A stretch of 64,000 bases of DNA, taken from contig JBGUGD010000015.1 of NCBI GenBank assembly GCA_041697335.1, positions 128,001 through 192,000 on the forward strand, read 5' to 3'. This stretch comes from Vampirovibrionaceae bacterium NZW_1234. GTDB lineage: Bacteria > Cyanobacteriota > Vampirovibrionia > Vampirovibrionales > JAGQHJ01. Position numbers and translations under genes: made by a program. Positions within the stretch are counted from its first letter, which is position 1, and each line of letters starts with the position of its first letter. Positions 6,163 to 40,482 of the stretch are shown here, piece after piece. Under the pieces are notes generated by a model. That model worked only from the letters and a program-made list of their open reading frames with translations. It did not search any database and was not told where the DNA came from.

Positions 6163-7419
6163 ATGTCCTCTTTGGGTAAGCTTTTACCGCTGTTTCTCAT
6201 ACAGCAAACACAGGCCGCTCAGCAACCCGCTGCGCAGTACGATGACTATGGCTACGATTCCCCGTTTGACATGGGTCCCGGTGGCATCGATTCCTTTGAG
6301 TCATCCCGCGGCTGGCCGCCCTTGGACATGGCCCCACCTGAGCCCCCCCCGCCAGCAATGGATCCGATGATGCTCATCGTCATGATGCAGATGATGAAGA
6401 AGGACGGCGATTCTGAAGACGGCGGCCTCGACCCTATGATGCTCATGATGATGATGGGCCAAGGCAAGATGGACCCCATGATGATGCTCCTGATGATGAA
6501 GATGGGGGACAAGGACGACAGCACCACAGGCGATTCCAAAGACGGCATTGATCCCATGATGCTTATGATGATGATGGGCGGTGCCGGCGGCGCAGGTGGC
6601 GCCGGGGGTATGGATCCCATGATGATGATCGTCATGATGCAGATGATGGAGAAGGACGGCGATTCTGAAGACGGCGGCCTTAACCCCATGATGCTCATGA
6701 TGATGATGGGCGGCAACATGGACCCCATGATGATGCTCTTGATGATGAAAATGGGGGACAAGGACGACACCACCACAGGCGGTGACAATGATGACGGCAT
6801 CGATATGAAGACCCTGATGATGATGTCCATGATGTCCGGTGCCGGAGGCCCGGGCGGTCCCGGTGGCCCGGGCGGTCCGGGTGGTGGCATGGATCCGATG
6901 ATGATGATCCTGATGATGAAAATGATGGGCGATGACAACGGCTCGGGTGGCATGGACATGAAGACCCTGATGATGATGTCCATGATGTCTGGGGGCGGCA
7001 TGGATCCGATGATGATGCTCCTGATGATGAAAATGGGCGATAACAATAGCCCCCCCGGCAGTGGTAGCGGCCTGGATATGAAAGACATGATGCTGTTCTC
7101 CATGATGTCTGGAGGCGGCGGCGATATGATGGGCATGATGATGATGATGTCCATGATGAACGGCGATATGGACATCAAAGACTTTATGTTGTTCTCCATG
7201 CTCTCCGGTGGCCTGGATCCGGGTGGAATGATGATGATGATGATGCTCAGGGGCGATAGGCCAAGAACGGTCATTCCCAGAGGCAACACCCTGGTGAGCG
7301 GCACAAACATTGCCAATAACTATGGCACCGTGGGCAATATGGTGAACAACCTCAGCAGCTTTTCAACCAACAATTTCTTTGGCGGCAATTTTATGAGAAT
7401 GGGCAGCTTCTGGGGCTAG
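6163..7419 (+). CDS. Methionine-rich low-complexity repeat protein of unknown function
   Basis: 418 aa, about 104 Met by hand count (~25%); repeated (M)DPMMMxxMM blocks in Gly/Asp/Lys linkers; paralogous cassette in the 37918 protein supports this strand. Confidence 0.85.
   Translation: MSSLGKLLPLFLIQQTQAAQQPAAQYDDYGYDSPFDMGPGGIDSFESSRGWPPLDMAPPEPPPPAMDPMMLIVMMQMMKKDGDSEDGGLDPMMLMMMMGQGKMDPMMMLLMMKMGDKDDSTTGDSKDGIDPMMLMMMMGGAGGAGGAGGMDPMMMIVMMQMMEKDGDSEDGGLNPMMLMMMMGGNMDPMMMLLMMKMGDKDDTTTGGDNDDGIDMKTLMMMSMMSGAGGPGGPGGPGGPGGGMDPMMMILMMKMMGDDNGSGGMDMKTLMMMSMMSGGGMDPMMMLLMMKMGDNNSPPGSGSGLDMKDMMLFSMMSGGGGDMMGMMMMMSMMNGDMDIKDFMLFSMLSGGLDPGGMMMMMMLRGDRPRTVIPRGNTLVSGTNIANNYGTVGNMVNNLSSFSTNNFFGGNFMRMGSFWG
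6358..6780 (+). repeat. Intragenic duplication, period 252 nt (84 aa)
   Basis: ATGGATCC.ATGATG...GACGGCGATTCTGAAGACGGCGGCCT starts at 6358 and at 6610. Confidence 0.8.
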
Positions 7420-7720
7420 CCTCCAGCAATGCTTGACCAGCGCCTCACACATATTGGGCGCCCTGGAAAATTTCGAGATGCCCTGCCCTTCTGACGGCCC
7501 CCCTAAAGCGCCGCACGGTTTCACCGTCAAGGGTGACCAACGGGCGTCTTTCTCCCAATACTCTGTTGCTCACCAGGGCTGTATCGTTTCTCTAGACCCA
7601 ATAATTTTCCCCATATTTTACAACTCAAGTCCGCCATCAAAAGCGTCAGAACGTTTTTTGGAGGCAAAAAAGTCTTGGTAAAGCCACGTTCGAGAGGGTT
7701 TTGGCAGCGCCAAAAAAAGT

Positions 7721-7737
7721 TGTAACAAATCCGAAAT
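7721..7737. promoter_or_regulatory. TGTAAC-N5-CGAAAT direct-repeat site
   Basis: Matches the 6063 site; 111 nt upstream of ATG 7832. Confidence 0.45.
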
Positions 7738-7780
7738 ATATCTAAAAAATAAGGCAATTATATAACTAATTAATTTTTTA

Positions 7781-7797
7781 TTTATATACAAGATATC
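7781..7797 (+). promoter_or_regulatory. TTTATAT-N6-TATC element upstream of the Leu-rich gene
   Basis: 60 nt after the TGTAAC site (61 nt at the 6063/6124 locus). Confidence 0.45.
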
Positions 7798-7831
7798 CAT
7801 TATATTAGTTGTCAACATAGAGGAATCAACA

Positions 7832-8362
7832 ATGGGTTTAAGTAATCTCCAATCCCCTGGGTTCGACCCCATATCGGCTTATATGGCTGGTGGTGCCGGT
7901 GGTGCTGGTGGCATCGGTGCTGGTGGTTTCAATCCCCTCGCCATGGGCGGCGGTATTGATCAATTCCAAGCCAGAGCAGCTTGGCCCCCGCGCCCGCCTG
8001 TTCAACCCCCCGCGCCTCAAGGACCGGACCTGTCGTCTTTACTGCCAATCATCCTCTTGACGAGCATGGGCGGCGATGACAATGACAGTAAAGGTGGTAT
8101 CGGCAAGCTGCTTCCGCTCTTACTGCTCTCAGGCGCTGGCGGAGCCGGCGGTGCTGGCGGCGGTATCGGCCAACTCCTGCCCATCCTGCTCTTATCGGGC
8201 GGCCTGGGTGGCGACGACGACGATGACAAAAAAGGCGGCCTGAAAGACCTGTTACCGATTCTGCTCTTAAGTGGCGGTTTAGGTGGCAGTGGCGGCGGTG
8301 CCGGCGGTCTCGGCTCGATTCTGCCCTTGCTGTTGCTGGGTGGTCTTGGCGGCGACGACTAA
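7832..8362 (+). CDS. Gly/Leu-rich repeat protein (five LLP[IL]LLL-type blocks) of unknown function
   Basis: AGAGGA RBS; five repeats separated by Gly or poly-Asp linkers; followed by a terminator. Confidence 0.85.
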   Translation: MGLSNLQSPGFDPISAYMAGGAGGAGGIGAGGFNPLAMGGGIDQFQARAAWPPRPPVQPPAPQGPDLSSLLPIILLTSMGGDDNDSKGGIGKLLPLLLLSGAGGAGGAGGGIGQLLPILLLSGGLGGDDDDDKKGGLKDLLPILLLSGGLGGSGGGAGGLGSILPLLLLGGLGGDD

Positions 8363-8399
8363 GCCAACCCCAAGCATCGAACTCAAAACCAAGTTTTTT

Positions 8400-8436
8400 A
8401 AATTCCCCTGGGCTGGATTCAGCACCAGGGGAATTT
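8400..8436. terminator. Hairpin terminator between convergent genes
   Basis: AAATTCCCCTGG / CCAGGGGAATTT 12-bp inverted repeat. Confidence 0.7.
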
Positions 8437-8458
8437 TGGTTTCAGCCTTCAATGGTGA

Positions 8459-9682
8459 CTAGCCGTCTACCTTGGGCGGATCCTCATGGACCGGAGCCTT
8501 TTGCTTGAAGAGGATTTGCTTGTTCCAGCGCAGATCCACAAATTGCAATTGATCCTGACGTTCCCGAATGGCTGGAATCAGGGGAAACAGTCGCTCCAGC
8601 CGGTCCATCACCAAACTGTCAGCACGCCCCACCCGGACTTTAAACCCGTCAAATTCAGCATAAATATCATAGGGATTGGTCAGATCCAAATACTGCAACT
8701 TGGTCAATCCGGGGCGACTGTTGAGGAACTGGGCTATTTCCCGGTAACGGGTCCAGGCTTGGGAATTCAGCTGTGTCAGTTGGGCCCGTTTAAGCACCAG
8801 GGGAATGGCCGAATCAAAGGACTTTTCGACCTGGGGGGTCAGCTTAAACGCCGCCAAATCGGTCCAGGAGCTGTCCCAATGAACCAGGTACGTGGGTTTG
8901 GGAGGCGTTACCTTCACGGAAGGTGCCTTCTCCAGAGTCTGATCCGGATTAACCGGCGAATCAGCCTTTGCCTCAGAGGCGGGCACTGTAACGTCAGTCT
9001 TGGAAGGCTCCTCCACCGGGGGCGTGGTATACACAATACCCCAGCTCGGTTTTTCGGAAACCACGATTTCTAACCCCACAGGAAATAAATGGCGCCGGAT
9101 ATGGATCTGATCCAACAGGGGCAACTCCTGCTTCATCTGACGTTCCAGAACCTGAGGGTTAATCTTATAAATGGCCTTCTGGTCCAGGGGCTCGATAAAA
9201 CGCAGAATATCCGCCCGAGTGATGAGTTTCGCGCCGGCCAAGGTCATATTCTGATGAGAAAACTGGAAATAAGGCGAGGATAAGAGCAAATACAGGCCTG
9301 CCAGCATCAGCATGCCCGCAAACAGACGGATCAGGCCACAGATCCGGTTGTAAAACACCCGCCGCTTTTTCTTCTCCCGGCGTTTCTGGAGATACACTTC
9401 CTGGCGTTTACGGGCCTTCTCCAACTGGTCTTCGCTTCGAGGCCGGGCGGATTCCATGGAGACGACTTTTTCCATGGGCGGCATCTCAGGTAACTGGGGC
9501 CCTTCCGCCACCGCCGTGGTACTGCTGACAAGCGCCATCTGAGGCAGCTCGACGCTGGCCACAGAGTCATCCGTCCTTGCGTCCAGACCCATGGGGTTTA
9601 GTTCAGACAAGCCCGCAGCATCCGGCTCCAGGTTTGCCCCTGGAGAGGAAAAGGACTGTTGCTGGGGATCATCCGGTGCCAT
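8459..9682 (-). CDS. ftsQ: Cell division protein FtsQ/DivIB
   Basis: Basic patch, single TM, POTRA-like region (IHIRRHLFPVGLEIVVSEK) and C-terminal VDLRW; downstream of ddl. Confidence 0.8.
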   Translation of the reverse strand: MAPDDPQQQSFSSPGANLEPDAAGLSELNPMGLDARTDDSVASVELPQMALVSSTTAVAEGPQLPEMPPMEKVVSMESARPRSEDQLEKARKRQEVYLQKRREKKKRRVFYNRICGLIRLFAGMLMLAGLYLLLSSPYFQFSHQNMTLAGAKLITRADILRFIEPLDQKAIYKINPQVLERQMKQELPLLDQIHIRRHLFPVGLEIVVSEKPSWGIVYTTPPVEEPSKTDVTVPASEAKADSPVNPDQTLEKAPSVKVTPPKPTYLVHWDSSWTDLAAFKLTPQVEKSFDSAIPLVLKRAQLTQLNSQAWTRYREIAQFLNSRPGLTKLQYLDLTNPYDIYAEFDGFKVRVGRADSLVMDRLERLFPLIPAIRERQDQLQFVDLRWNKQILFKQKAPVHEDPPKVDG

Positions 9683-9726
9683 GCCCACCTCTAGTCGTAC
9701 CTCCTATAAACACCCATGCCCTAGCG

Positions 9727-10677
9727 TCATCCGCCAACCATGGCCGTCTGTAATATACATTCTACCAGCTCATCGTAGCCCACCCCCATGCAATTGGCCT
9801 GGGCCGGCAAATCGCTGAGATCCGTCATCCCCGGGATGGTATTGACCTCGAGAATGTAAAATCGGTTCTGGGCGTCGACCACAAAGTCGATACGCGAAAC
9901 CCCATGGCACCCGACCGCCTGGTGGGCTTTCAAGGTGGTTTCCTGGATGGCCTGAGTGACGTCCGGCGGCAATTCGGCGGGTAAGACAAACTCGGTCATG
10001 CCTTGGGTGTATTTGGCTTCCAGATCGTACCACTCGGTCTTGGTCCGTAATTCCAGAATGGGGGTCACCACGGGCTTGCCGTCCTTGTTGAAAACACCCA
10101 CCGTGATGGATTTACCCGGGACAAATTCTTCAACCATAATAATGGGGCTGTGATCGGCGGCCAATTGCAGGGCCGATTCCAGATTCGCCTTTTCGTTGAC
10201 CTTGGACATCCCGATGCTGGAGCCTTCGGTAGCGGGTTTGACCATTACGGGAAAACGCAGCTCTTCGAATCGCTCCAAGGGGAAATGATTCCGGCCGTTA
10301 CGCTTGATGGTAACCGAGGGAATAATGGGCAAGCCTTCGGCCTTCAGGATTTTCTTGGTCGTATCCTTGTCCATGGTAATGGCGCTGGCAGCCACCCGAT
10401 TGCCGGTGTAGGGAATCCCGAGGATTTCCAGCAAGCCCTGGATGCAGCCGTCTTCCCCGTAACGCCCATGAAGCGCCAGGAAGACCACGTCCACCTTTTC
10501 CTTCACCAGGCGCTCAGCCACCTGGCGATCCATATCGATCATGACGCTGTTCTGATAGCCCAGGCGTTGCAGGGCCTCGAAGCAGTTTTTCCCCGAGCGC
10601 AGGGACACGTCCCGTTCTGAGGACAGTCCTCCACAGAGGACGGCAATTTTTGCAGATTTATCAACGCTTCCAGGCAT
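9727..10677 (-). CDS. ddl: D-alanine--D-alanine ligase
   Basis: GGLSSERDVSLRSG, LHGRYGEDG, EGSSIG and LEVNTIPGMT motifs. Confidence 0.97.
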   Translation of the reverse strand: MPGSVDKSAKIAVLCGGLSSERDVSLRSGKNCFEALQRLGYQNSVMIDMDRQVAERLVKEKVDVVFLALHGRYGEDGCIQGLLEILGIPYTGNRVAASAITMDKDTTKKILKAEGLPIIPSVTIKRNGRNHFPLERFEELRFPVMVKPATEGSSIGMSKVNEKANLESALQLAADHSPIIMVEEFVPGKSITVGVFNKDGKPVVTPILELRTKTEWYDLEAKYTQGMTEFVLPAELPPDVTQAIQETTLKAHQAVGCHGVSRIDFVVDAQNRFYILEVNTIPGMTDLSDLPAQANCMGVGYDELVECILQTAMVGG

Positions 10678-11590
10678 GACCGGTCAGTTCCTCCCACAGG
10701 GCTATTTCTTCGGACGTGGCATCGCCAAGAAACCGGTTCTCGGGGTGGGCTTCCAACCCGGTCCGGGCTTCAATGGTCCGTTTCATCCGTAACATCAATT
10801 TTAAAATATCGGTTGAGGTGGCGTGACCCATGTTCACAATGAAGTTGGCATGCTTGGGGCTCACCATGGCCCCGCCTTCGGTCCACCCCTTGGCTCCGGC
10901 CTCGTCCAGAATCTTCCCGGCAGGCTGCTCCTTGCTGGGGTTCTTGAAAACACTCCCGCCATTGGGTTCTTTGGGGTGATGTTGCTGACGAAACACAAGG
11001 CTTTTCTGGATCAATTCGGCAATCTCCGAGGCCGTGCCCGGGCGAAAGGTGAGCTGGGCGCCCAGGACCACATGGGTTGCCGGGTCGACGGCACTTTTGC
11101 GATAGGAAAAGGCCAGTTTCTCTCGAGACCAGGTTTCGACAACGCCGGACACGATGTTGAACAAATACGCTTCATCCAGGATTTCAGCCGTTTCTTGGCC
11201 CATGGCCCCGGCATTCATGGAAATGGCCCCGCCCAAGGTCCCCGGCACCCCAATCATAAACTCGGCCCCGGTCAACTCATGCTCCTGCGCGAGGGTGGCC
11301 ACCCGAGCCAAGGGCATGCCCGCCCCGATTTTAAAGGTGTTGGGGCCCAATTGCTGGGACGACATCAGGCGCTTGCCCAAAAACGTCACACCTCGAATGC
11401 CCTGGCTCGCGATAATGGTATTGGCGCCGCCGCCAATCACGGTGACGGGACACCCTCGGGTGCGAACCTCATTTAAAATGGCCAGTGCCTCTTCCAGGGT
11501 CTTGGGCATGTAGGGTTCATCCAGAATGCCACCCACCCGATAGCTGCAATATTGGGCCCCCATGACCCGCTCCTGGACCGGTTGAATCAT
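10661..11590 (-). CDS. murB: UDP-N-acetylenolpyruvoylglucosamine reductase
   Basis: GVPGTLGGAISMNAGA, FSYRKS, GSVFKNP and KHANFIVN motifs. Confidence 0.96.
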   Translation of the reverse strand: MIQPVQERVMGAQYCSYRVGGILDEPYMPKTLEEALAILNEVRTRGCPVTVIGGGANTIIASQGIRGVTFLGKRLMSSQQLGPNTFKIGAGMPLARVATLAQEHELTGAEFMIGVPGTLGGAISMNAGAMGQETAEILDEAYLFNIVSGVVETWSREKLAFSYRKSAVDPATHVVLGAQLTFRPGTASEIAELIQKSLVFRQQHHPKEPNGGSVFKNPSKEQPAGKILDEAGAKGWTEGGAMVSPKHANFIVNMGHATSTDILKLMLRMKRTIEARTGLEAHPENRFLGDATSEEIALWEELTGHAWKR

Positions 11591-13050
11591 GAATCGGCCG
11601 CCTTTGCCTGGGCCACCAGGGTTCGCCCAACCTGGGTAATGTCACCGGCGCCCATGGTAATGAGCAAATCATCGGGTGTGAGCATGGTTTTCAACCGGGC
11701 CACAACCAGGTTCCAATCCATCGACGGCCAATACTCGGCAGCCGGGTGCTCCATGGCCTGGACAAAGGCCAGGCTGTTAACCCCATCGATGGGGGCTTCA
11801 CCGGCGCTATAGACATCCACAATAATCGCTTCATCGGCATCCTCGAAGGCCTCGGCGAATTCCTGCCACAGGGCCTGAAGCCGTTGATACCGGTGCGGCT
11901 GAAACATCGCAATCACCCGCCCCTTATAGCGATTAAATTCCCGAGCCGCCTTCAATGTGGCCCGCACTTCGGTGGGGTGATGGGCGTAATCATCAATGAT
12001 CCGCGCCCCGTTAACCACCCCGAGCTGCTCAAAGCGGCGGCCCATGCCGGTAAAGTTCTCCAGGGTGCGACGAATGACATCGAAAGGAACACCCAGACGG
12101 TGCCCGATAATGGCGGCATACATAGCGTTGGACAGGTTATGGCGCCCCGGCACCTGAAGCCACAGGGAGCCAAGCCGGTTGTGGCCCTCATACACATCGC
12201 CCTGGTAACCGCCTTCCAGATGCACCAATACGTTGTCGAGCCAATAATCATCGCCGGTGTACTGCTCGGGCGCAGACTCGGTCCAGACCCGAAGGCCCGT
12301 CAGGCGATGCCCGAACTCCTGATACAACTCCCGGGTCACCGGGCAGGACATATTGAAAAGAACCGTCTGCTGGGGGCCCAAGGCGCTTAAATAGGTTTGA
12401 AAAGTTCGGATGACAGCCTGAAGCCCATCCTGATAATGATCCGGGTGATCCAGTTCCAGATTGGCAATCACCGAAATCCCCGGCTGATACTGCACCACCG
12501 TGCCATCGGATTCATCGAGTTCGGCGACGGCATAGCGGGTGTCCTTGCCACATTTGGCATTGGTGCCAAGCTGCGGAATCTTCCCCCCGGCAATAATCGT
12601 CGGATCCAGGCCCCCTTGCTCCAGCACCATCCCAACCATCCCGGTCATGGTGGTTTTTCCGTGGGTGCCGGTCAGGCCAATAGCCACCTCAAAGCGTTTC
12701 AGGATTTCCCGAAGCATGTCGGAACGATGGTACAAGACCAGGCCTTGCTGTTGCGCCGCCTGAACCTCGGGGTTCTGGGTCGAAATGGCCGAAGAGGTGA
12801 CCACAATCGCGCCGGATGGTACATTTTCGGCCTGATGTTGAGCCGAAATGGTGCCGCCCAGATCTCGAAGCGTGGTGAGCATGGGGCTGTCCTTGGCATC
12901 GGAACCGGAGACCGTAAAGCCTTGGCTCAGCAAGACTTTGGCCAAGGCGCTCATGCCAATGCCACCCACCCCGATAAAATGAATGGGCGTGGCTTTATCC
13001 AGATTCAACGGGGCCGGGTTGGGGCGATTCAGCAATTGGGTCTCCGACAT
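11587..13050 (-). CDS. murC: UDP-N-acetylmuramate--L-alanine ligase
   Basis: IHFIGVGGIGMSALA, GTHGKTT, ELDESD, DDYAHHPTE, FQPHRY and MGAGDI motifs. Confidence 0.97.
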   Translation of the reverse strand: MSETQLLNRPNPAPLNLDKATPIHFIGVGGIGMSALAKVLLSQGFTVSGSDAKDSPMLTTLRDLGGTISAQHQAENVPSGAIVVTSSAISTQNPEVQAAQQQGLVLYHRSDMLREILKRFEVAIGLTGTHGKTTMTGMVGMVLEQGGLDPTIIAGGKIPQLGTNAKCGKDTRYAVAELDESDGTVVQYQPGISVIANLELDHPDHYQDGLQAVIRTFQTYLSALGPQQTVLFNMSCPVTRELYQEFGHRLTGLRVWTESAPEQYTGDDYWLDNVLVHLEGGYQGDVYEGHNRLGSLWLQVPGRHNLSNAMYAAIIGHRLGVPFDVIRRTLENFTGMGRRFEQLGVVNGARIIDDYAHHPTEVRATLKAAREFNRYKGRVIAMFQPHRYQRLQALWQEFAEAFEDADEAIIVDVYSAGEAPIDGVNSLAFVQAMEHPAAEYWPSMDWNLVVARLKTMLTPDDLLITMGAGDITQVGRTLVAQAKAADS

Positions 13051-13068
13051 CACAGCATCCTCCCCACG

Positions 13069-14622: not shown

Positions 14623-14852
14623 GGCGCCAACATCCTTTCCAGAGCAACTTTACACGGAACGGTTCTCTGCATTATTGTAACAGGTTCAGGCGTCAAACGG
14701 CCATATATACCGGCACCCATATCGCTTGGCAACCCTTCGCGCCAACAGAGCAGGCCGAGGCATTCAAGATCCATGACCGATGGTCGAAGACAAAGGAGAG
14801 TTACTGCCTCTTGCGCTCCTCTCTGACGCTTGAAAAGATTACCCCGGAAATA

Positions 14853-15884: not shown

Positions 15885-15918
15885 ATCCTGTTTCAAAGGC
15901 AAAAACCGAACATTTTAC

Positions 15919-15985
15919 CCGTGCGGACAAATTGTCCGCACGGGGCTCCCCAATTTTTAACCGTGTGGACAAATTGTCCACACGG
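15919..15985. repeat. Palindromic element locus A: two 25-bp palindromes (15919-15943, 15961-15985), 17-nt spacer
   Basis: CCGTGCGGACAAATTGTCCGCACGG and CCGTGTGGACAAATTGTCCACACGG. Confidence 0.9.
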
Positions 15986-16237
15986 GACATGACGCCCCAA
16001 TAAGCGGAAAAACAAATGCTGCGGAATGATTTTTGAAGGAAATTTGACATAAAAACCTCGTCTGATATGGGTTTTTATTTTTGATATACCCAAAAACCCT
16101 TTATTTTAAACGTGTTTATTATTAAGATTTCCTTAAAATCCAACAATAGAGAGTATTTTTGAGTAAAATCACTCAAAATAATCCGATTTCAAACGTTTTT
16201 TCCCGCAAGAAAAGCTGGTTTTATTGAGCCAATTGAT

Positions 16238-17179: not shown

Positions 17180-17270
17180 GGCGGGTACCTACTTCAACTG
17201 CTCAAGCTTCCATGGCTCAGGATTATCTATGATGCTACAAGGAATTGCCTGGCAAGGAAACCCCTTGTAA

Positions 17271-28622: not shown

Positions 28623-28623
28623 C

Positions 28624-29499: not shown

Positions 29500-29537
29500 C
29501 CTATGTGCACTCCTAAACCAACATGATGAGTCCCATC

Positions 29538-30725: not shown

Positions 30726-30932
30726 ACAGCATTACGCTCCTTAAGTACTGCCTTCTATGAATACCCCCAATAGTGTAACGAAAGCACAAAAACGCGTCTA
30801 CTGAGGGGGAGCATACGCTCTGGCGCCAGGTATTCGACACAACCATACGGCCACTGTCATGTAAAAAAGGTTTTCATTTCATCTTGAAGCCGTTTAATAG
30901 GAACACGGGTGAGTGAGTATGGCAAACCGGGG

Positions 30933-32132: not shown

Positions 32133-32173
32133 TGCAGGTACTGCACTATTATCCAGGCTTCACTTGTCAATAC

Positions 32174-32250
32174 TGGGGCGACTGATGGGATTCGAACCCA
32201 CGATAACCTGAACCACAATCAGGGGCCCTGACCACTAGGCGACAGTCGCC
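32174..32250 (-). tRNA. tRNA-His (GTG)
   Basis: 8-bp acceptor stem GGCGACTG/CAGTCGCC including G-1, anticodon arm CCTGA-TTGTGGT-TCAGG, GTTCGAATC T-loop, encoded CCA. Confidence 0.97.
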
Positions 32251-32505
32251 ATATCGCTTTTCGCCAGTTACGTCCGTTTGGAAACGTAGGGAGCGATGAC
32301 GAGAATGTTATTTTAACAAGGACCCTTTGGGAAGTCTAGAGTCAACCGGGAATCCTTTAGAACTCTTCAAAACCGCCAACCCATGGGCGATTCAATTGTA
32401 ACGAATCAGGACTAACTCGAGCGACTTCACTTAAGCACAGGATTCATCATCCCCCCTTTGCGGGTATAGTGGAAATAGCACCACCGGGAACACACTCAAG
32501 GCCAC

Positions 32506-33747
32506 ATGAAAAAAATTCTACTTCTTAGCAATGCGCAGTCTATTTTGCCCAGCCAGCTTGGCGTTAAGCTGGAAGCGGAAGGCTTTTGCGTAAACCACCC
32601 TGCTCACGAGATGCATGAGTGGCTTTCCGAGATAGATGCCCATCAGCCGGATCTCATTCTGATGGAACTTTTGGAAGACAATATGCTGGAGCTCTGTCGT
32701 CTCTGTCATCGTCTTCGCCAGGAAAGCCACACCGAAAGCATTCCCATTCTTCTGTTAGGCGGCCCCAGTGTCAATGGAAACGGAAACGCATTAAATGCCC
32801 TGCTTGAAGGCTTACAAGCAGGGGCCAACGACTATTTGCAGACGCCCTTCGGTATGCCCGAGCTATTGAGTAAAATCCATACGGCGTTGCGGATGAAGAA
32901 TCTGGTGGAGCGGTCTCAGGTTTTGGCCAACCAGCTGAATTCCGTCAATGAAGAGCTCTACCAGCGCAACATTCAGGTGGAAAAAGAATTGCACATTGCC
33001 CGACAGCTTCAGCAAAGCCTGCTTCCCCCCGCCATTCCACAACCCGAAGATGATTCGGCGCCCATTTTTACGAAAATCCATTACCAGGATGACAAAATCC
33101 GAATCTCCGGGATCTACCTCCCCTGCGATGCGCTAGGTGGCGATCTTTACGACGTGATCAAATTTCCCGATGAGGCCTTGGGAATTTCCATTACCGACGT
33201 GTCCGGCCATGGGGTTCCGGCAGGCTTTATTACGGCTATCTTCAAAACGTCACTATACCGGATTACCCACCAGCAAACCGATCCATCGGTCGTGCTTTAT
33301 CATTTGAACAACGAATTGTTTGACATTGTCAAAACCGGGGATTATGTCACCAGCATCTATCTCAGGATCGATCCCCAGACTATGCAACTGGATTGTGCGG
33401 GAGCAGGGCATCCCTACCCCTTTTATTACTGTGCCAAGGAGCATGCGATTCATCGCCTCAAGAAAAACGGCACGCCACTCGTGTGGGTTCGCGACATTGA
33501 GTATCCCCTGGACAGTATCCAGTTGTCACCCGGTGATAAAGTGTTTTTAATTACCGATGGCATTTCCGAACTGAAAAATCCGGCCGGCGAAATGTATGGC
33601 GAGGACCGCGTGACGAACCATCTGCTGGAAGCCATTGAAGCCGGGGCACCGTATTTGACAGACGAACTTATCGGCAACCTGTCGGACTATACCGAAGGCG
33701 CTCCGCTGGAAGACGACATCAGCATGGTGCTGATTGAAGCGTTATAA
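32506..33747 (+). CDS. Receiver-domain / PP2C (SpoIIE/RsbU-type) phosphatase fusion
   Basis: ARQLQQSLLP, GGDLYD, DVSGHG, TDGISE and EDDIS motifs; atypical N-terminal receiver domain. Confidence 0.92.
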   Translation: MKKILLLSNAQSILPSQLGVKLEAEGFCVNHPAHEMHEWLSEIDAHQPDLILMELLEDNMLELCRLCHRLRQESHTESIPILLLGGPSVNGNGNALNALLEGLQAGANDYLQTPFGMPELLSKIHTALRMKNLVERSQVLANQLNSVNEELYQRNIQVEKELHIARQLQQSLLPPAIPQPEDDSAPIFTKIHYQDDKIRISGIYLPCDALGGDLYDVIKFPDEALGISITDVSGHGVPAGFITAIFKTSLYRITHQQTDPSVVLYHLNNELFDIVKTGDYVTSIYLRIDPQTMQLDCAGAGHPYPFYYCAKEHAIHRLKKNGTPLVWVRDIEYPLDSIQLSPGDKVFLITDGISELKNPAGEMYGEDRVTNHLLEAIEAGAPYLTDELIGNLSDYTEGAPLEDDISMVLIEAL

Positions 33748-33849
33748 TCCCCAAATTACTTGGAAAAGGCTGGGTATGTGCTAAGAACAGGTCTCACAAA
33801 CCCTATGGACTTAACGTTGAGATGGGATTATCGCTTATTAACACATCCT

Positions 33850-33884
33850 GAAACCGAAAAAAGCTTTTCAGGCCGTTCGGTTTC
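33850..33884. terminator. Possible hairpin between convergent genes
   Basis: GAAACCGAA / TTCGGTTTC inverted repeat. Confidence 0.4.
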
Positions 33885-33922
33885 GCTGGTTATTACAAGT
33901 GTTTAATTGTCAAAATGCTTAT

Positions 33923-34453
33923 CTAAATGACGGGACGACCAATAACTGGGGGGGGAGAATCTTCTGCTGGTGGAAAAATTGGCAATATGGTAGCTTTGCC
34001 ACTCCCGTCTATTACAATTTTAACAGGTATTCCATTAGGATCGATCACGTCTCCCTCAGCACCAATTTCAATTTCTTTTCCGTCTGGCCCCACAACAACT
34101 GGTGTTATCGCACTATCAAGGTCAGGAACCGTAATGGTGCCAATTGGTTTACCATCTTTGTCTGTCACGTCATATTTTCCACCACCCGCCGGTGTAACAG
34201 TATACCCTGGACCCCAAATACCCTTAATTCCATCTTTAATTTTGTCTGCCTCAGTTTTTGGAGGTTCCGGATCCGGCTCTATCGCTGTAAACGTACTAAA
34301 ATTAACGCTAATAGTGTCCGTTTTAGTACCACTATTCATGCCAATTGGGTACAAAACCTCTGAACTACTTGAACCGACGGTAGAGGTCGAGGGCAAGCCC
34401 GGTACTAAAGGATTGACACCACCTGGATTTGGGATTCCTGAAGTTGAAGTCAT
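33923..34453 (-). CDS. Pro/Gly/Thr-rich acidic hypothetical protein, lower GC than neighbours
   Basis: 176-aa ORF with GAGG RBS and an upstream sigma28-like promoter. Confidence 0.65.
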   Translation of the reverse strand: MTSTSGIPNPGGVNPLVPGLPSTSTVGSSSSEVLYPIGMNSGTKTDTISVNFSTFTAIEPDPEPPKTEADKIKDGIKGIWGPGYTVTPAGGGKYDVTDKDGKPIGTITVPDLDSAITPVVVGPDGKEIEIGAEGDVIDPNGIPVKIVIDGSGKATILPIFPPAEDSPPPVIGRPVI

Positions 34454-34489
34454 AATATTTCCTCAAGGTTAAGTCATTTGTACCCACAG

Positions 34490-34516
34490 TTATCGAATTA
34501 TTGTGTAGATACTTTA
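34490..34516 (-). promoter_or_regulatory. Sigma28 (FliA)-type promoter
   Basis: TAAA-N15-TTCGATAA on the minus strand versus consensus TAAA-N15-GCCGATAA; 36 nt before the ATG. Confidence 0.6.
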
Positions 34517-34888
34517 GAAGTGGGAGCAAAAATTAACAACATCATGCATACTTTCATGTCTTTGAGCTTGCTTCTCCTCCTCACCTCTATTGACCTATTT
34601 CCCCATGTTTAGGTCATTCGAATACAATCACTCCCCTATCTCTCGCTTCAGAGCTTGCCTCATTTCCTTCGTCATCTGTTTGAACAGCTTTTGATTTTTG
34701 GAGGTCATGCTGTCCAAATCAGGAATAATTGGCCGGAGGCGACTTTAGCATGGGGAGATAGGGTATTGCGATAAAGGCCTGTGGCTCCAGCAGCCTGGAA
34801 TGGATGGGAAAATCAAAAAGGTTATGGCAAACCTCCGATTCCTTGCAAATCGGCCAAAAGCAGGCTATTCCCCTATAAAACTAACCGC

Positions 34889-35143
34889 TTAGTTAAACTT
34901 AAACATGGCCAGCACGGTGAGAATGATGACCAAGGCCATGGCTGCATCGTTAAAGGGCTCCGGCACGACCGTGAGTGCAACCACCCCGAGAAAGAACACC
35001 AGGACCAGGCCTGCCATGACTTTTTCCTGCACGTAGCGTCCCGATCCTTCTTTGGATTCGGTTTTCGCAGGACCTTTCTTGAGAGCCGACTCCACTGCAA
35101 CAGAATCGATCAGTTGAGGCTCAGGGGGAATTACAGAAGTCAT
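34889..35143 (-). CDS. Small membrane protein (two C-terminal TM helices)
   Basis: VMAGLVLVFFLGVVALTVV and AAMALVIILTVLAMF; GGAG RBS; downstream of the TrmB gene. Confidence 0.6.
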   Translation of the reverse strand: MTSVIPPEPQLIDSVAVESALKKGPAKTESKEGSGRYVQEKVMAGLVLVFFLGVVALTVVPEPFNDAAMALVIILTVLAMFKFN

Positions 35144-35193
35144 CGTCAAACACACTCCATATTTTGTTGGGAAAACCGGACCCGGTGGGTACC

Positions 35194-36009
35194 CTAGTGA
35201 GCGCCGATGAGGATTTCCTCACCGAAAATTTTGTTTCTGAGCTTGTGGAAGTGGGTGCCATAGGCTTTTTCCATTGGCTCTTTCAACGTGCGCTCAACGT
35301 CCAGTATAAAAATATCATGAACGATCAATTCTTTCAGAATCAACACAATGGCTGGATTGCGGGTCCACAGGGCATGTGGCTGTGTCGTGCCGACAGGTAC
35401 CGTACTGACCAGGCCCTCAAAGGCATCAACGGCCAGAAACAGCCAGCGTCCACCCAACTGGGTTTCAATGGTATCAGCAAGAGAGTGTTGATAGACCGTA
35501 CAGAAATCGTAGCCAACCGAGTTATAGCCTACAATATAGATATTGACACCTCGCTCAGCCGCATCACGCAAGGGCTTTTCCAACAGGTGCTGGTCATGGC
35601 TCCACAGTTCCATAAAAATGGTTTCTCGGGCCCCTTCAATCATTTCCCGAGCGTGGGCGTAAATCGCATCTTCCCCGCGTAAGTTATGAACCGGCTCGAT
35701 ACTCTCCACCGCATAACTGGGCAGAGCCGCCCGGAGAAAATTAATGGAGCCTTGATATTGCTTTTCAAAACGGTTCAAAATTTCTTCAGGGGACACCGGG
35801 ATGTACTGAACCGGCTTGCCTTCCGTAGCCACCACCATCTTTTGAGATTCCAGCGCCTTTAGTGTGTCGTAGGCCCTGGCCTGAGGGATATTGGCATTCT
35901 TGCTGATTTCATAGCCCGTAGCCGGGTGACTCTTTAAAAGGGCTAGGTAAACTTTCGACTCGTAACTATTGAGCCCTAAGCGTTTGAGCTGTTCAATGAT
36001 AGCATCCAT
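35194..36009 (-). CDS. TrmB-family transcriptional regulator
   Basis: LKRLGLNSYESKVYLALL...TGYEISKNANIPQARAYDTLKAL and LRDAAERGVNI. Confidence 0.92.
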   Translation of the reverse strand: MDAIIEQLKRLGLNSYESKVYLALLKSHPATGYEISKNANIPQARAYDTLKALESQKMVVATEGKPVQYIPVSPEEILNRFEKQYQGSINFLRAALPSYAVESIEPVHNLRGEDAIYAHAREMIEGARETIFMELWSHDQHLLEKPLRDAAERGVNIYIVGYNSVGYDFCTVYQHSLADTIETQLGGRWLFLAVDAFEGLVSTVPVGTTQPHALWTRNPAIVLILKELIVHDIFILDVERTLKEPMEKAYGTHFHKLRNKIFGEEILIGAH

Positions 36010-36288
36010 AATGGCGTCCGAGTTGCGGTTTCCTAAAATACTTACCAAACATGGTAGTATATCCATGCGGTGTCAGAAATTTCAATCCTTGTGCATGGAA
36101 ATGTAACAATCCTGTCTTTCGCTTATCTCTCCCCCTCTTTTATTTCTAGTGCTTCCAAAAGACATCATTCATGACGGCAGCTTCATATCACTGCCCCCAA
36201 TCTGGATATAATTGTGACGTCCTTTTTTTATCTTTTCCCACGCATTACCAGAACTCTTTCTTTTCTTATGTTTTATAGACGAATAAAT

Positions 36289-36305
36289 GTTAACAAAAAC
36301 GTAAT
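36289..36305. promoter_or_regulatory. GTTAAC-N5-CGTAAT direct-repeat site
   Basis: Variant of the 6063/7721/56487 sites; upstream of the four-GntR gene. Confidence 0.4.
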
Positions 36306-36418
36306 ATTTGAATTTTTATTAGCATGTTTTATTTTTTTGTTGTTTTAATATATGTACAGCAGGGTTAAACACTTTATTGGACTAACAAATATTGATGACT
36401 TGGAGGGACTTTAGGCTG

Positions 36419-37717
36419 ATGGTCAAACAAGATAGATTGCAACAAGGTGCCGATCAGCATGCGACCGTCCGTAAAGGCGGGGGCTTACTGAAAAAGCCCC
36501 AAGCACAGGAACAGGCAACCGATTACGAAGTTCTGGAGAACGTTAGCAAGACTTCCTTAACTCGTATTGAAATGAACATGCTTCCCAAGCAAAAGCCGGA
36601 TTTTGACTTGCCGGGTGCAACCAAAGACGGTTTAATTGCCGAGTGGTTGAAAGATTGGATCCGTAACGGGGTCGAAAACGGTGACTTGACGGAAAGTCAC
36701 TTGATGCCGAAAAAAGCTGACATTGCCAAATACTTGGGCGTCAGCGTCGGGACGGTTCAAAACGCCATCCGCTTCATTGAAGACGAAGGCTTCGTTGAAT
36801 CCAAACAACGTATCGGCACCATCATCAGCAACCCGGAGCGTTCCGGCTCCCGTCTGCGCAAGCTGACATCCAAGCGGGATCATGCCGTGATTGCTGTTAA
36901 GAAACTGATTCTGGACCGCAACATCCAGCCAGGCGAAGCATTGCCCTCCGCTCGGGAAATTGCCCGTATCATCGGCAGTGCGCCAAATACCACCCGTCTG
37001 GCACTGGAATTTCTGGCCAGCCAGGGCTGCGTTGAAAATCGTGGCGCTCGTGGCAACAAAGCCAACTGGTTCCTGTACGAGGTACCTACCTTAAGTGACA
37101 GTGAAACCGTTACGGCCATTGCTTCTGACACCCTGATCGACCAAATCGAACGGGACCTCAAGAAGCTCATCGCCGATAACTACAACGTGGGCGACAAGTT
37201 GCCGTCTCACCTGGAGTTGGCTGATACCTTGAAAGTCAGTATTAAAACCGTTCACGACGCAATGTGCCGGGTTACTGAGCAAGGCATTGTGCAGTCCAAG
37301 CGGGGCCGCTATGGCACCTACATTATGCGCAAGCCTGACGCTGACAAGCTCTTCTCGACGGAAGAAGCAGCCAGCATCTTTATGCCGGCGCAAGAGGCCT
37401 TGTTTTACAACTATGAAAAAGTTGAAAAACACCTGAAGGTCTTGATCGCAAAAAAGTTCCAACTCGGTGACAAACTCCCATCGATGAGCCAATTGGCTGA
37501 AGCCTTGGATGTCAGTAGCAATACCATCCGCAAGGCCCTGCAAAACCTGGCTCAGGAAGATGTCGTTCGCTTCGAACGGGGCCGTTACGGCGGGACCTTT
37601 GTGACCAAAGTTCCGGAAATCCAAGAAGAAAAATCCTTCGCCTGGGTGTCCATCAATCCGGAAACCATCAAAAGTTACCGGAAGCAAGGCAGCAACCAGG
37701 AAGTGGTTTCCAACTAG
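36419..37717 (+). CDS. Regulator composed of four tandem GntR-type winged-HTH domains
   Basis: Four LP(S)...LA..L.VS..T...A...L...G units (MPKKADIA, LPSAREIA, LPSHLELA, LPSMSQLA); GGAGG RBS. Confidence 0.88.
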   Translation: MVKQDRLQQGADQHATVRKGGGLLKKPQAQEQATDYEVLENVSKTSLTRIEMNMLPKQKPDFDLPGATKDGLIAEWLKDWIRNGVENGDLTESHLMPKKADIAKYLGVSVGTVQNAIRFIEDEGFVESKQRIGTIISNPERSGSRLRKLTSKRDHAVIAVKKLILDRNIQPGEALPSAREIARIIGSAPNTTRLALEFLASQGCVENRGARGNKANWFLYEVPTLSDSETVTAIASDTLIDQIERDLKKLIADNYNVGDKLPSHLELADTLKVSIKTVHDAMCRVTEQGIVQSKRGRYGTYIMRKPDADKLFSTEEAASIFMPAQEALFYNYEKVEKHLKVLIAKKFQLGDKLPSMSQLAEALDVSSNTIRKALQNLAQEDVVRFERGRYGGTFVTKVPEIQEEKSFAWVSINPETIKSYRKQGSNQEVVSN

Positions 37718-37757
37718 ACAGAGCTTCAAAACATAGCCAATTTACACACACACACAT

Positions 37758-37790
37758 AAAAGCCAGGTGCCCGTCACTTGGCTTTTTTTT
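37758..37790 (+). terminator. Intrinsic terminator
   Basis: AAAAGCCAGGTG / CACTTGGCTTTT stem with T-run. Confidence 0.75.
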
Positions 37791-37831
37791 GCCTATTTTT
37801 ATTGCCTTTTTTCAGTTACAAACCTTCACAT

Positions 37832-37848
37832 TTTATATCTTTTTTATC
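37832..37848 (+). promoter_or_regulatory. TTTATAT-N6-TATC element upstream of the large Met-rich gene
   Basis: Third copy of the element; preceded by GTTACA-N4-TTCACA at 37815-37830. Confidence 0.45.
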
Positions 37849-37917
37849 AATCTTAGATATTGATTTGTTTTTATTTCAGTATCACGTAGTAGCTTTATGG
37901 AAAGTGTGTGTGTCCTT

Positions 37918-40482
37918 ATGGCGTTTTCGTCAGACAGCTTTTTGTCGCCTGGACTGTTCCAGAACATTGGCGGGCTTGGTACCCCAAGCATCCCCAATGG
38001 AACAAATCCATGGTTTCAGGATACATCGGGCTTTAGTCCGGGGTTTCAGCAGTCATCGCCCTTCAGCTTTGGCGGGGTGGACAGCTTTGCCCAAACCGGC
38101 TTCTCCAGCTACAACACCGATGGCTATGGTGGCTATGGTGGCTATGGCGGCTATGACTTCAACGGCTATGGCTCCCCAGGCAGCTATTGGGGAGGGGACT
38201 CCGGCGGCTTTAACAATGGCTTTTCAGGTGGCTTTGATACCGGACAAAGCGGCTTTTTTGACCCCAACAGCTTTAGCAACCAAGGCTATTTCTTTGATGC
38301 CCAAGGCAATCCGCTGAACTTTAACGGCTCTGGCGGCAATGGCTTTGACTCCGGCCAAAGCGGCTTTTTTGATCCCAACGGCTATGGCAGTGGCTTTGAC
38401 GATCAAGGCTATTATTACGATGATCAAGGCTATCCCATTGATCCCAGCCAAGATCCCCGTGCCTTTGGTCCACCCGGCTTTGACCCAGGCTTTGACCCAG
38501 GCTTTGATCCAGGTTTTGATCCGCAGTTTGATCCGGGGTTCGACCCGCGATTTGTCCAAGGCCCACCTCCTCGACCGCCTCAGCCTCGCTCCAACCCGCT
38601 TCTGCCCTTCCTCTTTCTCACCCTTCTGGACAAGGACCAGGGCTCAGGCTCCAGTGGCGGAGGCATCGACTTCAAGACCTTCATGATGATGTCCATGATG
38701 AGCGGGGGCGAGATCAACCCCATGATGATGTTCCTGCTTATGGATGACGAGGACGGCTCGGGCAGTGGCATGGACTTCAAGGACCTCATGCTCTTTTCCA
38801 TGATGAGTGGCGGCGGGGGCGGCGATATGATGGGCATGATGATGATGATGTCCATGATCAACGGGGATATGGACTTTAAGGACTTTATGCTGTTCTCCAT
38901 GATGAGCAGCGGTGATTTCAACCCCATGATGATGCTTCTTCTCATGGATGACGATGTTGGCGGCAATACAGTCGCCGCCGATGGCGAAAATATCGCCAAC
39001 AACTACGGCGAAGCAGGTAACATTGTCAACAACATTACCAAGCATGTCACGAACAACTACTTTGGCGGCGGTGTGATTCCCGGCAACATCTTTGGCGGGG
39101 GCACCTGTGGCATCCCTGTGCCCATTACGCCAGGAGTCTGCGCGCCCCCTTCCCCAGGTCCCGGCGTTTGTTTACCTCCTACTCCACCCCCGGTGCCAGG
39201 CCCCGGCGTCTGCTTACCACCCACACCGGGCCCCACCCATAACGGGCAGCTCGACATTGTCACCCGACTCTTTGATCACACCGGCCAGAATCTTTTGGAC
39301 CAAAATGATCGGGGCTCTGTCACCATTACCCGACAAGACGGTACCGTGGTCTACCAAGGACCCAACAACGGCATCATTCCCAACCTGCCTCGGGAAATCC
39401 TCAACGTTTCGGTCACCTTGCCCGCGGATCCGGCTCGTAACTTCCCGGGCCAAACCGTCCAGCCGCAGCAGGTTGACTTTAGAAACAACCAAAGCAATAC
39501 CCTCACCATTAATGCCTTTGCCACCCAGGTCAACAACCCGCCACCGGGAAATAATGGGCAGCTCGATGTCGTGACCCGGCTGTATGATCACACGGGCCAG
39601 ACCCTGCTTGATCAGAGCGACCGCGGGACTCTGACCATCACCAAACAAGACGGCACCGTGGTCTACCAGGGACCCAACAACGGTATCATCCCCAACCTGC
39701 CTCGGGAGATCCTCAATGTTGCTGTGAACCTTCCTGCCGATCCGGCTCGAAATTTCCCGGGCCAGACCCTCCAACCACAGCAGGTTGATTTCAGAAATAA
39801 CCAAAGCAATACGCTGACCATTAATGCCTTTGCCATACAACCGGTAAACAACACGCAAAACGATGCCTCGGTCCAGGTCAACATCCGACTTACAGACCAA
39901 AACGGCATTGTACGTTACCAAAGTACTGGCACCACCTGCACCATCCGAGATGCCCAGGGCAATATCACTCACCAAGGCGGGACCGACCCAACGCTGACCA
40001 TTGAGGTACGAAACCTCGACGGCACCCTGGTGCGACAGGTCACTGGCAACCGGGGCATCTTAACTGATCTCCCCCGAGGTCAGTATAACGTCACTGTCTC
40101 CTCCACCTTCTTTGGCCAAACCCCCATTAACGTCACCCAGCAGGTCGACACGCGAACCACGCCAGCGGCCACCATCGACATCAACCACACCATGACCTCG
40201 CAAACGCAACAGCAGCAGCAGGGCAATAATATCAGCTTCAAGCATTACTGGACCTCGAATGAATATGTGGGCACGAGCCAATACTACCCGGCACAATATG
40301 TGAACCAATACGGCCAAATCCCCAATGGGTTTGTGCAATTCCACACCATCGGGGATCCCAACTCGGTGCCCTATGACACAGGCTCCATCCTGGTCAATCG
40401 AAAGACCTTCATTAATGGGCAACAGGTTGAACAAAGCGATATTCAAATGTTTGTCCGAGACATCCCCCGATGGTATGCCTAA
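37918..40482 (+). CDS. Large modular protein: G/F/Y/D-rich disordered N-terminus, DPGF repeats, Met-rich cassette, Pro/Cys linker, three beta-rich repeat domains
   Basis: About 855-aa ORF (alternative start 37897); cassette near-identical to the C-terminal part of the 6163 protein. Confidence 0.85.
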   Translation: MAFSSDSFLSPGLFQNIGGLGTPSIPNGTNPWFQDTSGFSPGFQQSSPFSFGGVDSFAQTGFSSYNTDGYGGYGGYGGYDFNGYGSPGSYWGGDSGGFNNGFSGGFDTGQSGFFDPNSFSNQGYFFDAQGNPLNFNGSGGNGFDSGQSGFFDPNGYGSGFDDQGYYYDDQGYPIDPSQDPRAFGPPGFDPGFDPGFDPGFDPQFDPGFDPRFVQGPPPRPPQPRSNPLLPFLFLTLLDKDQGSGSSGGGIDFKTFMMMSMMSGGEINPMMMFLLMDDEDGSGSGMDFKDLMLFSMMSGGGGGDMMGMMMMMSMINGDMDFKDFMLFSMMSSGDFNPMMMLLLMDDDVGGNTVAADGENIANNYGEAGNIVNNITKHVTNNYFGGGVIPGNIFGGGTCGIPVPITPGVCAPPSPGPGVCLPPTPPPVPGPGVCLPPTPGPTHNGQLDIVTRLFDHTGQNLLDQNDRGSVTITRQDGTVVYQGPNNGIIPNLPREILNVSVTLPADPARNFPGQTVQPQQVDFRNNQSNTLTINAFATQVNNPPPGNNGQLDVVTRLYDHTGQTLLDQSDRGTLTITKQDGTVVYQGPNNGIIPNLPREILNVAVNLPADPARNFPGQTLQPQQVDFRNNQSNTLTINAFAIQPVNNTQNDASVQVNIRLTDQNGIVRYQSTGTTCTIRDAQGNITHQGGTDPTLTIEVRNLDGTLVRQVTGNRGILTDLPRGQYNVTVSSTFFGQTPINVTQQVDTRTTPAATIDINHTMTSQTQQQQQGNNISFKHYWTSNEYVGTSQYYPAQYVNQYGQIPNGFVQFHTIGDPNSVPYDTGSILVNRKTFINGQQVEQSDIQMFVRDIPRWYA
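38473..38553 (+). repeat. 12-nt coding tandem repeat (DPGF, about 6 units)
   Basis: GA[CT]CC[AG]GG[CTG]TT[TC] units. Confidence 0.85.
39241..39834 (+). repeat. Intragenic domain duplication, period 312 nt (104 aa)
   Basis: NGQLD.VTRL.DHTGQ...TLTINAFA begins at 39241 and at 39553. Confidence 0.9.

Follow-up and report, generated by a model that had tools for sequence, protein, structure and literature searches.

A promoter-like motif joins three block-bearing proteins of a Vampirovibrionales bacterium to a putative sigma factor pair and, possibly, to a second flagellar-type export system

The window analysed here comprises 64,000 nucleotides (nt) of Vampirovibrionaceae bacterium NZW_1234 (positions 128001-192000 of contig C29 of source genome G000; 3.70 Mb, 94.75% complete) and contains three genes, P1, P2 and P3, whose products consist of short hydrophobic blocks separated by polar linkers. 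One promoter-like motif precedes all three. We tentatively propose that P1, P2 and P3 are late substrates of a second flagellar-type export system and self-associate outside the cell, where P3 would display adhesin-like domains. Within this account, the three are likely to be lineage-specific members of a promoter-defined set of approximately 80 mostly orphan genes lacking signal peptides. The likely reader of the promoter motif, judged from its genomic distribution, is a divergent sigma factor pair derived from FliA, designated sigX1 and sigX2. The 3057 gene calls of G000 and their start codons were obtained with a hexamer model plus heuristics. Comparisons were made with 48 other genomes of the order Vampirovibrionales (49 including G000), none of which belongs to the genus of G000, and class-wide with 151 genomes sorted into families (f5 to f10 among them).

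Properties of P1, P2 and P3

The three genes and their parts are located in the window as follows.

6163..7419, + strand: P1, 418 amino acids (aa), 25% Met, 17.5% Gly, Cys-free, isoelectric point (pI) 4.05, 16 blocks, C-terminal Asn module
6358-6825, + strand: internal duplication in P1 with a 252-nt unit
6952..7386, + strand: segment of P1 homologous to P3, with Met blocks, the cassette (7057-7203) and the Asn module (7297-7386)
7832..8362, + strand: P2, 176 aa, 28% Gly (27.8%), 19% Leu, Cys-free, pI 4.14, five LLP-type blocks
37918..40482, + strand: P3, 854 aa; an alternative start at 37897 gives 861 aa
39238..39837, + strand: tandem domains of P3, two units of about 97 aa with 84 of 96 residues identical

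All three open reading frames (ORFs) are gene-like by the hexamer model of the genome. The blocks number 16, 5 and 7 in P1, P2 and P3, respectively, and are 7 to 11 residues long, a wider range than the 8 to 10 residues first claimed. The Met content of P2 is 2%. P3 begins with a low-complexity head rich in aromatic residues, Gly and Asp, followed by seven blocks, an Asn module (38980-39069), a Cys/Pro linker and the beta-sandwich domains; the first 390 aa are free of Cys, which accounts for 0.6% of the whole protein. By eye, the Asn module resembles a beta-arch. Neither curlin repeats nor a signal peptide were found in P1, P2 or P3 (Pfam; sequence check), and their peak 19-residue hydropathy of 1.2 to 1.4 argues against a membrane span, which bears out the earlier statement that the proteins lack a Sec signal and that their blocks are too short for a bilayer. 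A transmembrane role was ruled out, as no hydrophobic segment of membrane length is present. In a single-sequence fold of low confidence (mean predicted local distance difference test, pLDDT, 49), the blocks of P2 are modelled as short helices within a disordered chain.

The motif GG[IV]D[SQ]F, chosen post hoc, occurs among the called genes in exactly P1, P2 and P3, beginning at residue 40 in P1 and P2 and at residue 52 in P3; shuffled genomes contained 0 to 2 occurrences each (4 in total over 30 shuffles). It had been described as standing ahead of a Pro-rich stretch. While the motif itself is present in all three proteins, this setting does not extend to P3, where WPP is missing and some 130 residues separate the motif from the Pro-rich stretch. 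The shared LLP block was recovered by comparison in all three proteins.

A match to an already characterised family, looked for as a counter-test, was not found above cut-off for P1, P2 or P3 in Pfam, PHROGs or NCBIfam. P1 and P2 have no Pfam family at E 0.01 and the tail of P3 has no Pfam match above cut-off. For P1, a search of the ESM atlas gave no usable match, plasmid sequences (low-complexity filter on) gave none, and a single weak match was obtained in one of 40 other genomes. A homologue search with the P3 tail was without a match, the tail was found in 0 of the 48 other order genomes, and none of these was found to contain P1, P2 or P3 as such. Compared to a CnaB/transthyretin-like sandwich, the P3 domain of about 97 aa gave a Z of 7.0 and a root-mean-square deviation of 2.8 over 88 aligned residues, on a model with pLDDT 40. 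Foldseek E-values for the tail domains were above 6e-3, and atlas family matches (0.87 to 0.89) pointed the same way. The assignment of the modelled tandem domains as CnaB/transthyretin-like and adhesin-type is a lead, not a proof; the score on the low-confidence model and the atlas neighbours lend weak support to the earlier suggestion that P3 displays folded domains. A GGA(A/G)TGTGTGTG-type leader is located just 5' of the P3 start (37900-37917) and also ahead of the genes at C2:86523, C34:87591, C14:20539 and C20:10989.

Kinship of the three genes and the wider cohort

Judged by their alignment (59% over 148 aa, E 1e-21), P1 and P3 are paralogues. The near-identical cassette noticed before is real (118 of 141 aligned DNA columns identical); the true homology is longer and covers the 148 aa. 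In four codon-aligned blocks of P1 and P3, synonymous and non-synonymous differences number 24 codons each; at the start of the cassette the counts are 10 and 4, respectively. This pattern fits selection on the protein. P2 gave no significant alignment to P1 (E 0.1) and has in common with it only the block design, GG[IV]D[SQ]F at the same residue and the LLP block.

A profile of the Asn module, built from four genes, recovered five in G000, namely P1, P3, C2:83587-86523, C34:84904-87591 and C28:12049-13371; the gene not used for the profile scored E 6e-6, the first match beyond the five E 2.9 and the top reversed control E 1.8. The module was found in 0 of the 48 other order genomes; among 1.84 billion representatives, the only matches were one cohort gene of G000 (P4) and an unrelated repeat protein. 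When the design is taken more loosely, as a polar head of low complexity together with one or more hydrophobic blocks, it extends to 34 genes of G000 (referred to as the design-picked set). Many of these proteins run on into a Pro or Cys/Pro stalk plus a tail domain (by eye), the tails including EF-hands (below the Pfam cut-off), WGDPH repeats and thioredoxin-like domains (partly by eye). The notion of a three-gene family is thus wrong both ways, P2 being not alignable to P1 and the design extending over 34 genes; the Asn module, three further paralogues, the extent of the regulon, the sigma factors and the second export system had been missed. Two motif-led proteins (C28:12049-13371 and C30:129873-130406) consist of tandem [KT]x(Y/A)PSD(Q/D)E repeats, and one of them ends in an Asn module.

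Promoter-like motif and activator-like box

Motif discovery in the upstream regions of 22 block-bearing genes led to RGCAAT-N14-GTTTTTAT, which is common to the upstream regions of P1, P2 and P3. The following sites were located in the window.

6063..6069, + strand: activator-like box TGTAACA of P1, 33 nt before the P1 -35 element
6096..6124, + strand: promoter-like motif of P1, AGCAATT-N14-ATTTTTAT, with 16.4 bits the lowest score among the three genes
7721..7781, + strand: activator box (7721-7727) and promoter-like motif (7753-7781) of P2, 28.1 bits
37815..37874, + strand: activator box GTTACA (37815-37820) and promoter-like motif (37846-37874) of P3, 21.2 bits
36319: a fourth site, 16.5 bits, with a poor -35 part

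Shared promoters had been claimed before, and one motif and one upstream activator box indeed precede all three genes, which supports their putative co-regulation. The gene at 36392-37717 (+ strand), directly 5' of P3 and behind the weak motif at 36319, encodes a protein with four GntR-type helix-turn-helix domains.

With a spacer of 14, the exact motif has 28 sites; the remaining spacers between 8 and 23 give 0 to 2 each, and reversed controls none. With a weight matrix and a threshold of at least 17 bits (16 bits for comparisons of gene sets), 82 sites were detected in G000 versus one in the control, nearly all of them intergenic and oriented into a gene. The box TGT[AT]ACA lies ahead of 29 of the 82 sites versus 112 of 1404 background regions, clustered at helically phased distances of 11, 22, 31-33 and 42-44 nt; P1, P2 and P3 all carry it. 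The -10 element precedes 24 of the 34 design-picked genes versus 194 of 3023 others (p 6e-21); for the full motif, scored at no less than 16 bits, the counts are 12 of 34 versus 58 of 3023. In a check independent of the G000 cohort, the motif pattern was found in 49 of 49 order genomes (0 to 2 in controls). Motif-led proteins rarely carry a Sec-like signal (2 of 61 versus 389 of 2996 others); their N-termini are polar and poor in aliphatic residues, and the share of Gly, Ser, Asn, Pro, Gln and Thr in the first 50 residues is 0.47 compared to 0.35 in other proteins. In G003, a genome of the same family, proteins that are specific to the genus and share the design stand behind the motif, and the single weak P1 match is one of them. 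Two variants of the -10 element exist, each with its own -35 words, perhaps a sign of two sigma factors.

Among the motif-led genes are those of an OmpR-like response regulator (by eye; C9:130272-130982), which is a candidate for binding to the TGTAACA box, and of a CopG-like regulator of small size (by eye; C20:35093-35431), which is motif-led in G003 too (L036). In gut-type relatives of family f7 (L151, L171), block-free proteins follow the motif, among them an M16-like peptidase (by eye) whose N-terminal leader is polar. A link between the motif and genes with an RFG leader was considered and rejected, as the motif (16 bits or more) precedes 2 of 182 of them versus 56 of 2841 others.

Candidate sigma factors

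The candidate sigma factors and the genes of the second export system are encoded at these positions.

51872..52600, + strand: sigX2, a divergent FliA/WhiG-like sigma factor (FliA_WhiG 74.8 bits versus a cut-off of 189.6)
C16:18950: sigX1, a paralogue of sigX2 with one motif site upstream
50730..51812, + strand: flhB-2, the export-gate switch protein (TIGR00328 355.6 bits, cut-off 349.25)
C32:8784-20950 (L025, L026): cluster of the second system with two flgF/G-like genes, flgB, flgC, a transglycosylase gene, fliE, fliF, fliH, flhA and fliI
C8:66046-68536: second fliPQR

The two sigX paralogues score 73.6 and 74.8 bits with the FliA model (cut-off 189.6) and stay below all equivalog cut-offs; a closer FliA-like gene exists separately at C10:99755. 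sigX was found in all 49 order genomes, 45 of which have at least two copies, and in 112 of the 151 genomes of the class. The closest named relatives of the sigma factor are from Vampirovibrionales genomes (84-88% identity), while records of Vampirovibrio chlorellavorus show 66-71%. The motif is located 5' of sigX1 in 18 of 26 scored loci, never on the opposite strand (30 loci fetched including that of G000, four not located by anchor), and also in three named V. chlorellavorus records. It is enriched in families with two sigX copies and near background in f5, where sigX is missing (0 of 33). Directly before sigX2, flhB-2 is found in 16 of 18 loci across the class, 60 bases apart in the window; the count covers sigX2 or single-copy-type loci, two more of the 20 fetched being sigX1. 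A small ORF of 58-61 aa without a family match, possibly a regulator, lies between the promoter and sigX1 (C16:18681-19630; L075:3182-4131).

The sigX set resembles the FliA (sigma-28) regulon in that a sigma gene lies behind flhB, promoters are dispersed, targets are signal-less and export gate and rod genes are present in duplicate. It differs in its promoter motif, the FliA consensus being TAAA-N15-GCCGATAA, and in a sigma factor far below the FliA cut-off. Its targets are orphan low-complexity proteins instead of flagellins, the system is kept without flagellin, and no second FliG was found.

A second flagellar-type export system

Besides a full motility flagellum, G000 has a second complete flagellar-type export gate. 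The second system is similar to non-flagellar injectisomes in having its own gate and ATPase (second fliP, fliQ, fliR, flhB, flhA, fliI, fliF and fliH), but differs from them in its flagellar rod genes and in lacking an SctV-type gate and a linked secretin. For either of the two FlhA-family genes, the FlhA model gives a higher score than the SctV model, the values for the second gate being 678.2 bits for FlhA (cut-off 772.1) and 585.9 bits for SctV (cut-off 692.25). The two secretins of the genome are encoded on C19 and C2, outside the cluster. A second FliG was not found in G000. Three genes of the C32 cluster are without a Pfam match; a 385-aa gene without an assigned role occupies the fliG position, and two small paralogous genes follow fliI.

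At least two FlhA matches were obtained in 46 of 49 order genomes, a few of which are split fragments. In f7, the second-type FliI is the only FliI (35 of 35 genomes), sigX and the motif are kept, and flagellin was found in 0 of five tested genomes; therefore, the second FliI does not serve swimming there. Family f5 is without second-type FliI, sigX and motif enrichment, and f10 without second-type FliI and sigX. Shared flagellar genes are listed in PMC3787301, where one gut genome that has lost filament parts is taken as a case of reduction. The listed order equals that of the C32 cluster, from which we infer that the two clusters correspond.

A different role for the motif-led set would be a developmental coat or sheath (cyst, resting cell or biofilm) made under a stage-specific sigma factor, its proteins leaving by the motility flagellum, a type I system, vesicles or lysis, with a merely historical linkage of sigX2 and flhB-2. 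The weak matches of sigX to WhiG and SigF/G sporulation models and the export operons devoid of the motif are in line with such a coat, as are the beta-arch-like Asn module (by eye) and the use of the same blocks by signal-peptide proteins of Oikopleura (see below). Against it, an exit route would be needed for many Sec-less proteins with folded tails of extracellular type, and the second gate is conserved and shares the distribution of sigX. We consider a coat of this kind unlikely.

Block grammar and harpins as comparisons

The database matches of P1 (18) and P2 (8) run mainly through the blocks and include signal-peptide proteins, one labelled Oikopleura dioica, and phage protein tails. The hydrophobic block is a widespread grammar and not a family mark. 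The secreted Oikopleura proteins (P0043 and look-alikes) share LLPLLLL and DP[LM]MMMLL blocks and Gly/Asp/Ser linkers with P1-P3, but are of animal origin and have signal peptides and Cys-bearing inserts; the match is limited to blocks (about 10% of the query), so that convergence is likely. An identity of these look-alikes as oikosins was considered and found no support, the motifs occurring in 0 of 11 supplement files, a source in which sequences given only as pictures would escape. Phage tails (members of phrog_3520 and others) have repeated DPMM[ML]MM blocks with Gly/Asp/Lys linkers like P1-P3; unlike these, the blocks sit on unrelated folded phage proteins without the shared promoter or module. 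A DNA pattern for the Met block gave 14 viral loci, 11 of them within ORFs of at least 84 aa. The viral contigs L007, L008, L011, L013-L015 and L018 encode phage proteins of one family, in which a beta-rich head is conserved and the tail consists of Met/Leu blocks; P0006, the one similar phage-type protein scanned, was without a match in PHROGs. At least 119 metagenome stretches contain the 9-residue Met motif found in the cassette of P1 and P3. Among the 80 stretches examined, only one lies in an ORF of at least 120 aa, which encodes a harpin (PF04877, E 1e-54) beside hrpV (L284).

Harpins are, by analogy, the closest working model for P1-P3. Like P1 and P2, the harpins of the HrpN, HrpZ, HrpW and Hpa1 groups (PF04877) are acidic, Gly-rich, Cys-free and without a Sec signal, with short Leu/Met helices in a floppy chain, and the L284 harpin carries the 9-residue Met block of P1. 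HrpW has a low-complexity head and a folded tail with a pectate lyase domain, and P3 resembles this plan. P1-P3 are unlike harpins in having up to 16 wholly hydrophobic blocks and neither homology to them nor an hrp cluster or plant-pathogen injectisome; moreover, the Asn module of P1 and P3 was not found outside G000. Harpin membership of P1-P3 was therefore rejected, as homology and an hrp cluster were looked for and neither was found. Accessible parts of the literature describe harpins as Gly-rich, Cys-free and acidic (PMC6945534), HrpZ as forming oligomers and fibrils via Leu-rich segments (PMC4264689) and harpins as promoting effector translocation (PMC10425158). Self-assembly of P1-P3 is plausible by analogy to the oligomerisation of harpins and to the block grammar of the Oikopleura signal-peptide proteins.

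Export by the second system could also serve a membrane-active role, in which harpin-like P1-P3 would oligomerise on a prey or host envelope and form pores or help substrates to cross, P3 being HrpW-like with a wall-binding tail. The composition of P1 and P2, the Met nonamer common to a real harpin, and amphipathic Leu/Met/Gln helices seen by eye in motif-led proteins of G024 and G004 (L184, L189, L196, L204) point in this direction, as do the help given by harpins to effector translocation (PMC10425158) and the dense spikes that V. chlorellavorus sends from its pad into the alga (PMC4451040), both according to the accessible parts of these papers. The blocks of P1-P3 themselves, however, are not amphipathic and with 7-11 residues stay below the bilayer span, harpin homology is lacking, and the 16 blocks of P1 fit a cross-linker better. 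Its probability is accordingly rated as low.

The pad of V. chlorellavorus offers a further comparison. In the accessible part of PMC4451040, its composition is described as unknown, and pad and spike are assigned to a plasmid-borne type IV system; the term 'type III' has no occurrence there. V. chlorellavorus belongs to the same order as G000, and its named records carry sigX1 with the upstream motif. The pad differs by its assignment to a type IV system and in that P1-P3 were not found in other order genomes. VirB4 was not found in G000.

Polyhydroxyalkanoate neighbourhood

Further genes are located near P1, outside the proposed system.

5221..5967, + strand: phaB-like reductase, a neighbour of P1 only
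3307-4937, + strand: globin-coupled chemoreceptor spread over two overlapping frames (protoglobin and methyl-accepting chemotaxis protein parts), a frameshift or an assembly error

A class III polyhydroxyalkanoate (PHA) cluster (C29:123585-127145) lies 7-10 kb upstream of P1, just before the window, and encodes a phasin-like protein (by eye), PhaR, PhaE, PhaC (above cut-off) and a MaoC-like protein, so that the idea of a granule surface was a fair one. Of the genomes tested, both from the same family (G003 and G004) and none of three others contain phaC. In G003 and G004, the phaB orthologue ends 65-80 bases from ftsQ with nothing in between, and P1 and P2 are missing; they are therefore lineage-specific insertions with their own promoters. 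No phasin family match was obtained for P1-P3 (Pfam), and the pha genes score below 0 bits for the motif. A PHA granule coat of P1 and P2, suggested originally, was judged unlikely and rejected on these grounds.

More generally, P1-P3 might act inside the cell as a condensate scaffold, a methionine/oxidant sink or a PHA granule coat, which we regard as distinctly improbable. Such a role would agree with the nearby pha cluster and the phaB gene abutting P1, with the same Met blocks on phage protein tails, with the 25% Met of P1 and with an export signal of P1-P3 that is only predicted. It is at odds with the relatives that have phaC and phaB without P1 and P2, the pha genes without motif, the phasin-like gene that the pha cluster already has, and the low Met content of P2. 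In addition, beta-sandwich, EF-hand and Cys/Pro stalk parts, which are characteristic of surface proteins, occur in P3 and cohort members.

Proposed mechanism

In the proposed export of P1-P3 by the second system, a sigX paralogue and an activator at the TGTAACA box would switch on the whole set together, as FliA does for late flagellar substrates. The polar, unfolded N-termini rich in Ser, Gly, Pro and Asn would serve as type III export signals. Outside the cell, short helices formed by the blocks would pack against those of other chains, with acidic Gly/Asp linkers as spacers. The multi-block proteins P1 and P2 would cross-link, whereas P3 and single-block proteins, held in place by their blocks and the Asn module, would present domains of adhesin-like or Ca-binding type on stalks rich in Pro. 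The outcome would be a surface layer or attachment pad held together by Met/Leu block association.

Several observations weigh against this account. Transcription, secretion and assembly of P1-P3 are predictions from the sequences. No needle, pilus, translocon or filament subunit was identified for the second system, and its structural and export operons are without the promoter motif. The same block grammar is found on phage protein tails, so that a block does not imply export, and the blocks of P1-P3 are wholly hydrophobic and not amphipathic; P1 has neither a Harpin Pfam match nor a BLAST alignment to the L284 harpin. The block is present in only 12 of 61 motif-led proteins, a set that includes regulators and enzymes, and in f7 genomes 0 of 28 motif-led loci encode a block protein. 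The enrichment of the motif within G000 is partly circular, because it was first seen on such cohort genes. Twelve distant sigX loci in the class, several of them from named gut Melainabacteria, have no upstream motif of at least 17 bits, and f6, f8 and f9 possess second-type FliI and one distant sigX with the motif only near background. Finally, the links of sigma factor to promoter and of substrate to machine are correlations among related, non-independent genomes.

Implications

A wider reading, which we hold to be rather doubtful, is that the Vampirovibrionia possess a so far unrecognised type III system of flagellar descent that evolved independently and has a FliA-derived sigma regulon of its own; Vampirovibrionales would use it to export dozens of fast-evolving proteins that co-assemble via Met/Leu stickers of 7-11 residues into an attachment pad. 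P1-P3 would be its cross-linkers and display subunits, and the same grammar would have arisen separately in harpins, larvacean proteins and phage tails. The parts are of known kinds (type III export, an alternative sigma regulon, harpin-like substrates), and their combination in this class appears to be undescribed; no published account of the promoter, the sigma pair, the second export system or P1-P3 was found in a literature search whose coverage excluded most subscription journals.

With the motif, candidate secreted proteins can be listed directly for any order genome, among them that of V. chlorellavorus, a pest of algal ponds. For predatory Vampirovibrio, the composition of the pad is described as unknown in the accessible part of PMC4451040, and the type IV system to which it was assigned was not found in G000. 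The leftover flagellar genes of non-flagellated gut Melainabacteria may represent a conserved secretion machine. A sticker grammar that recurs in bacteria, in phages and in an animal would offer a simple model of how proteins self-assemble.

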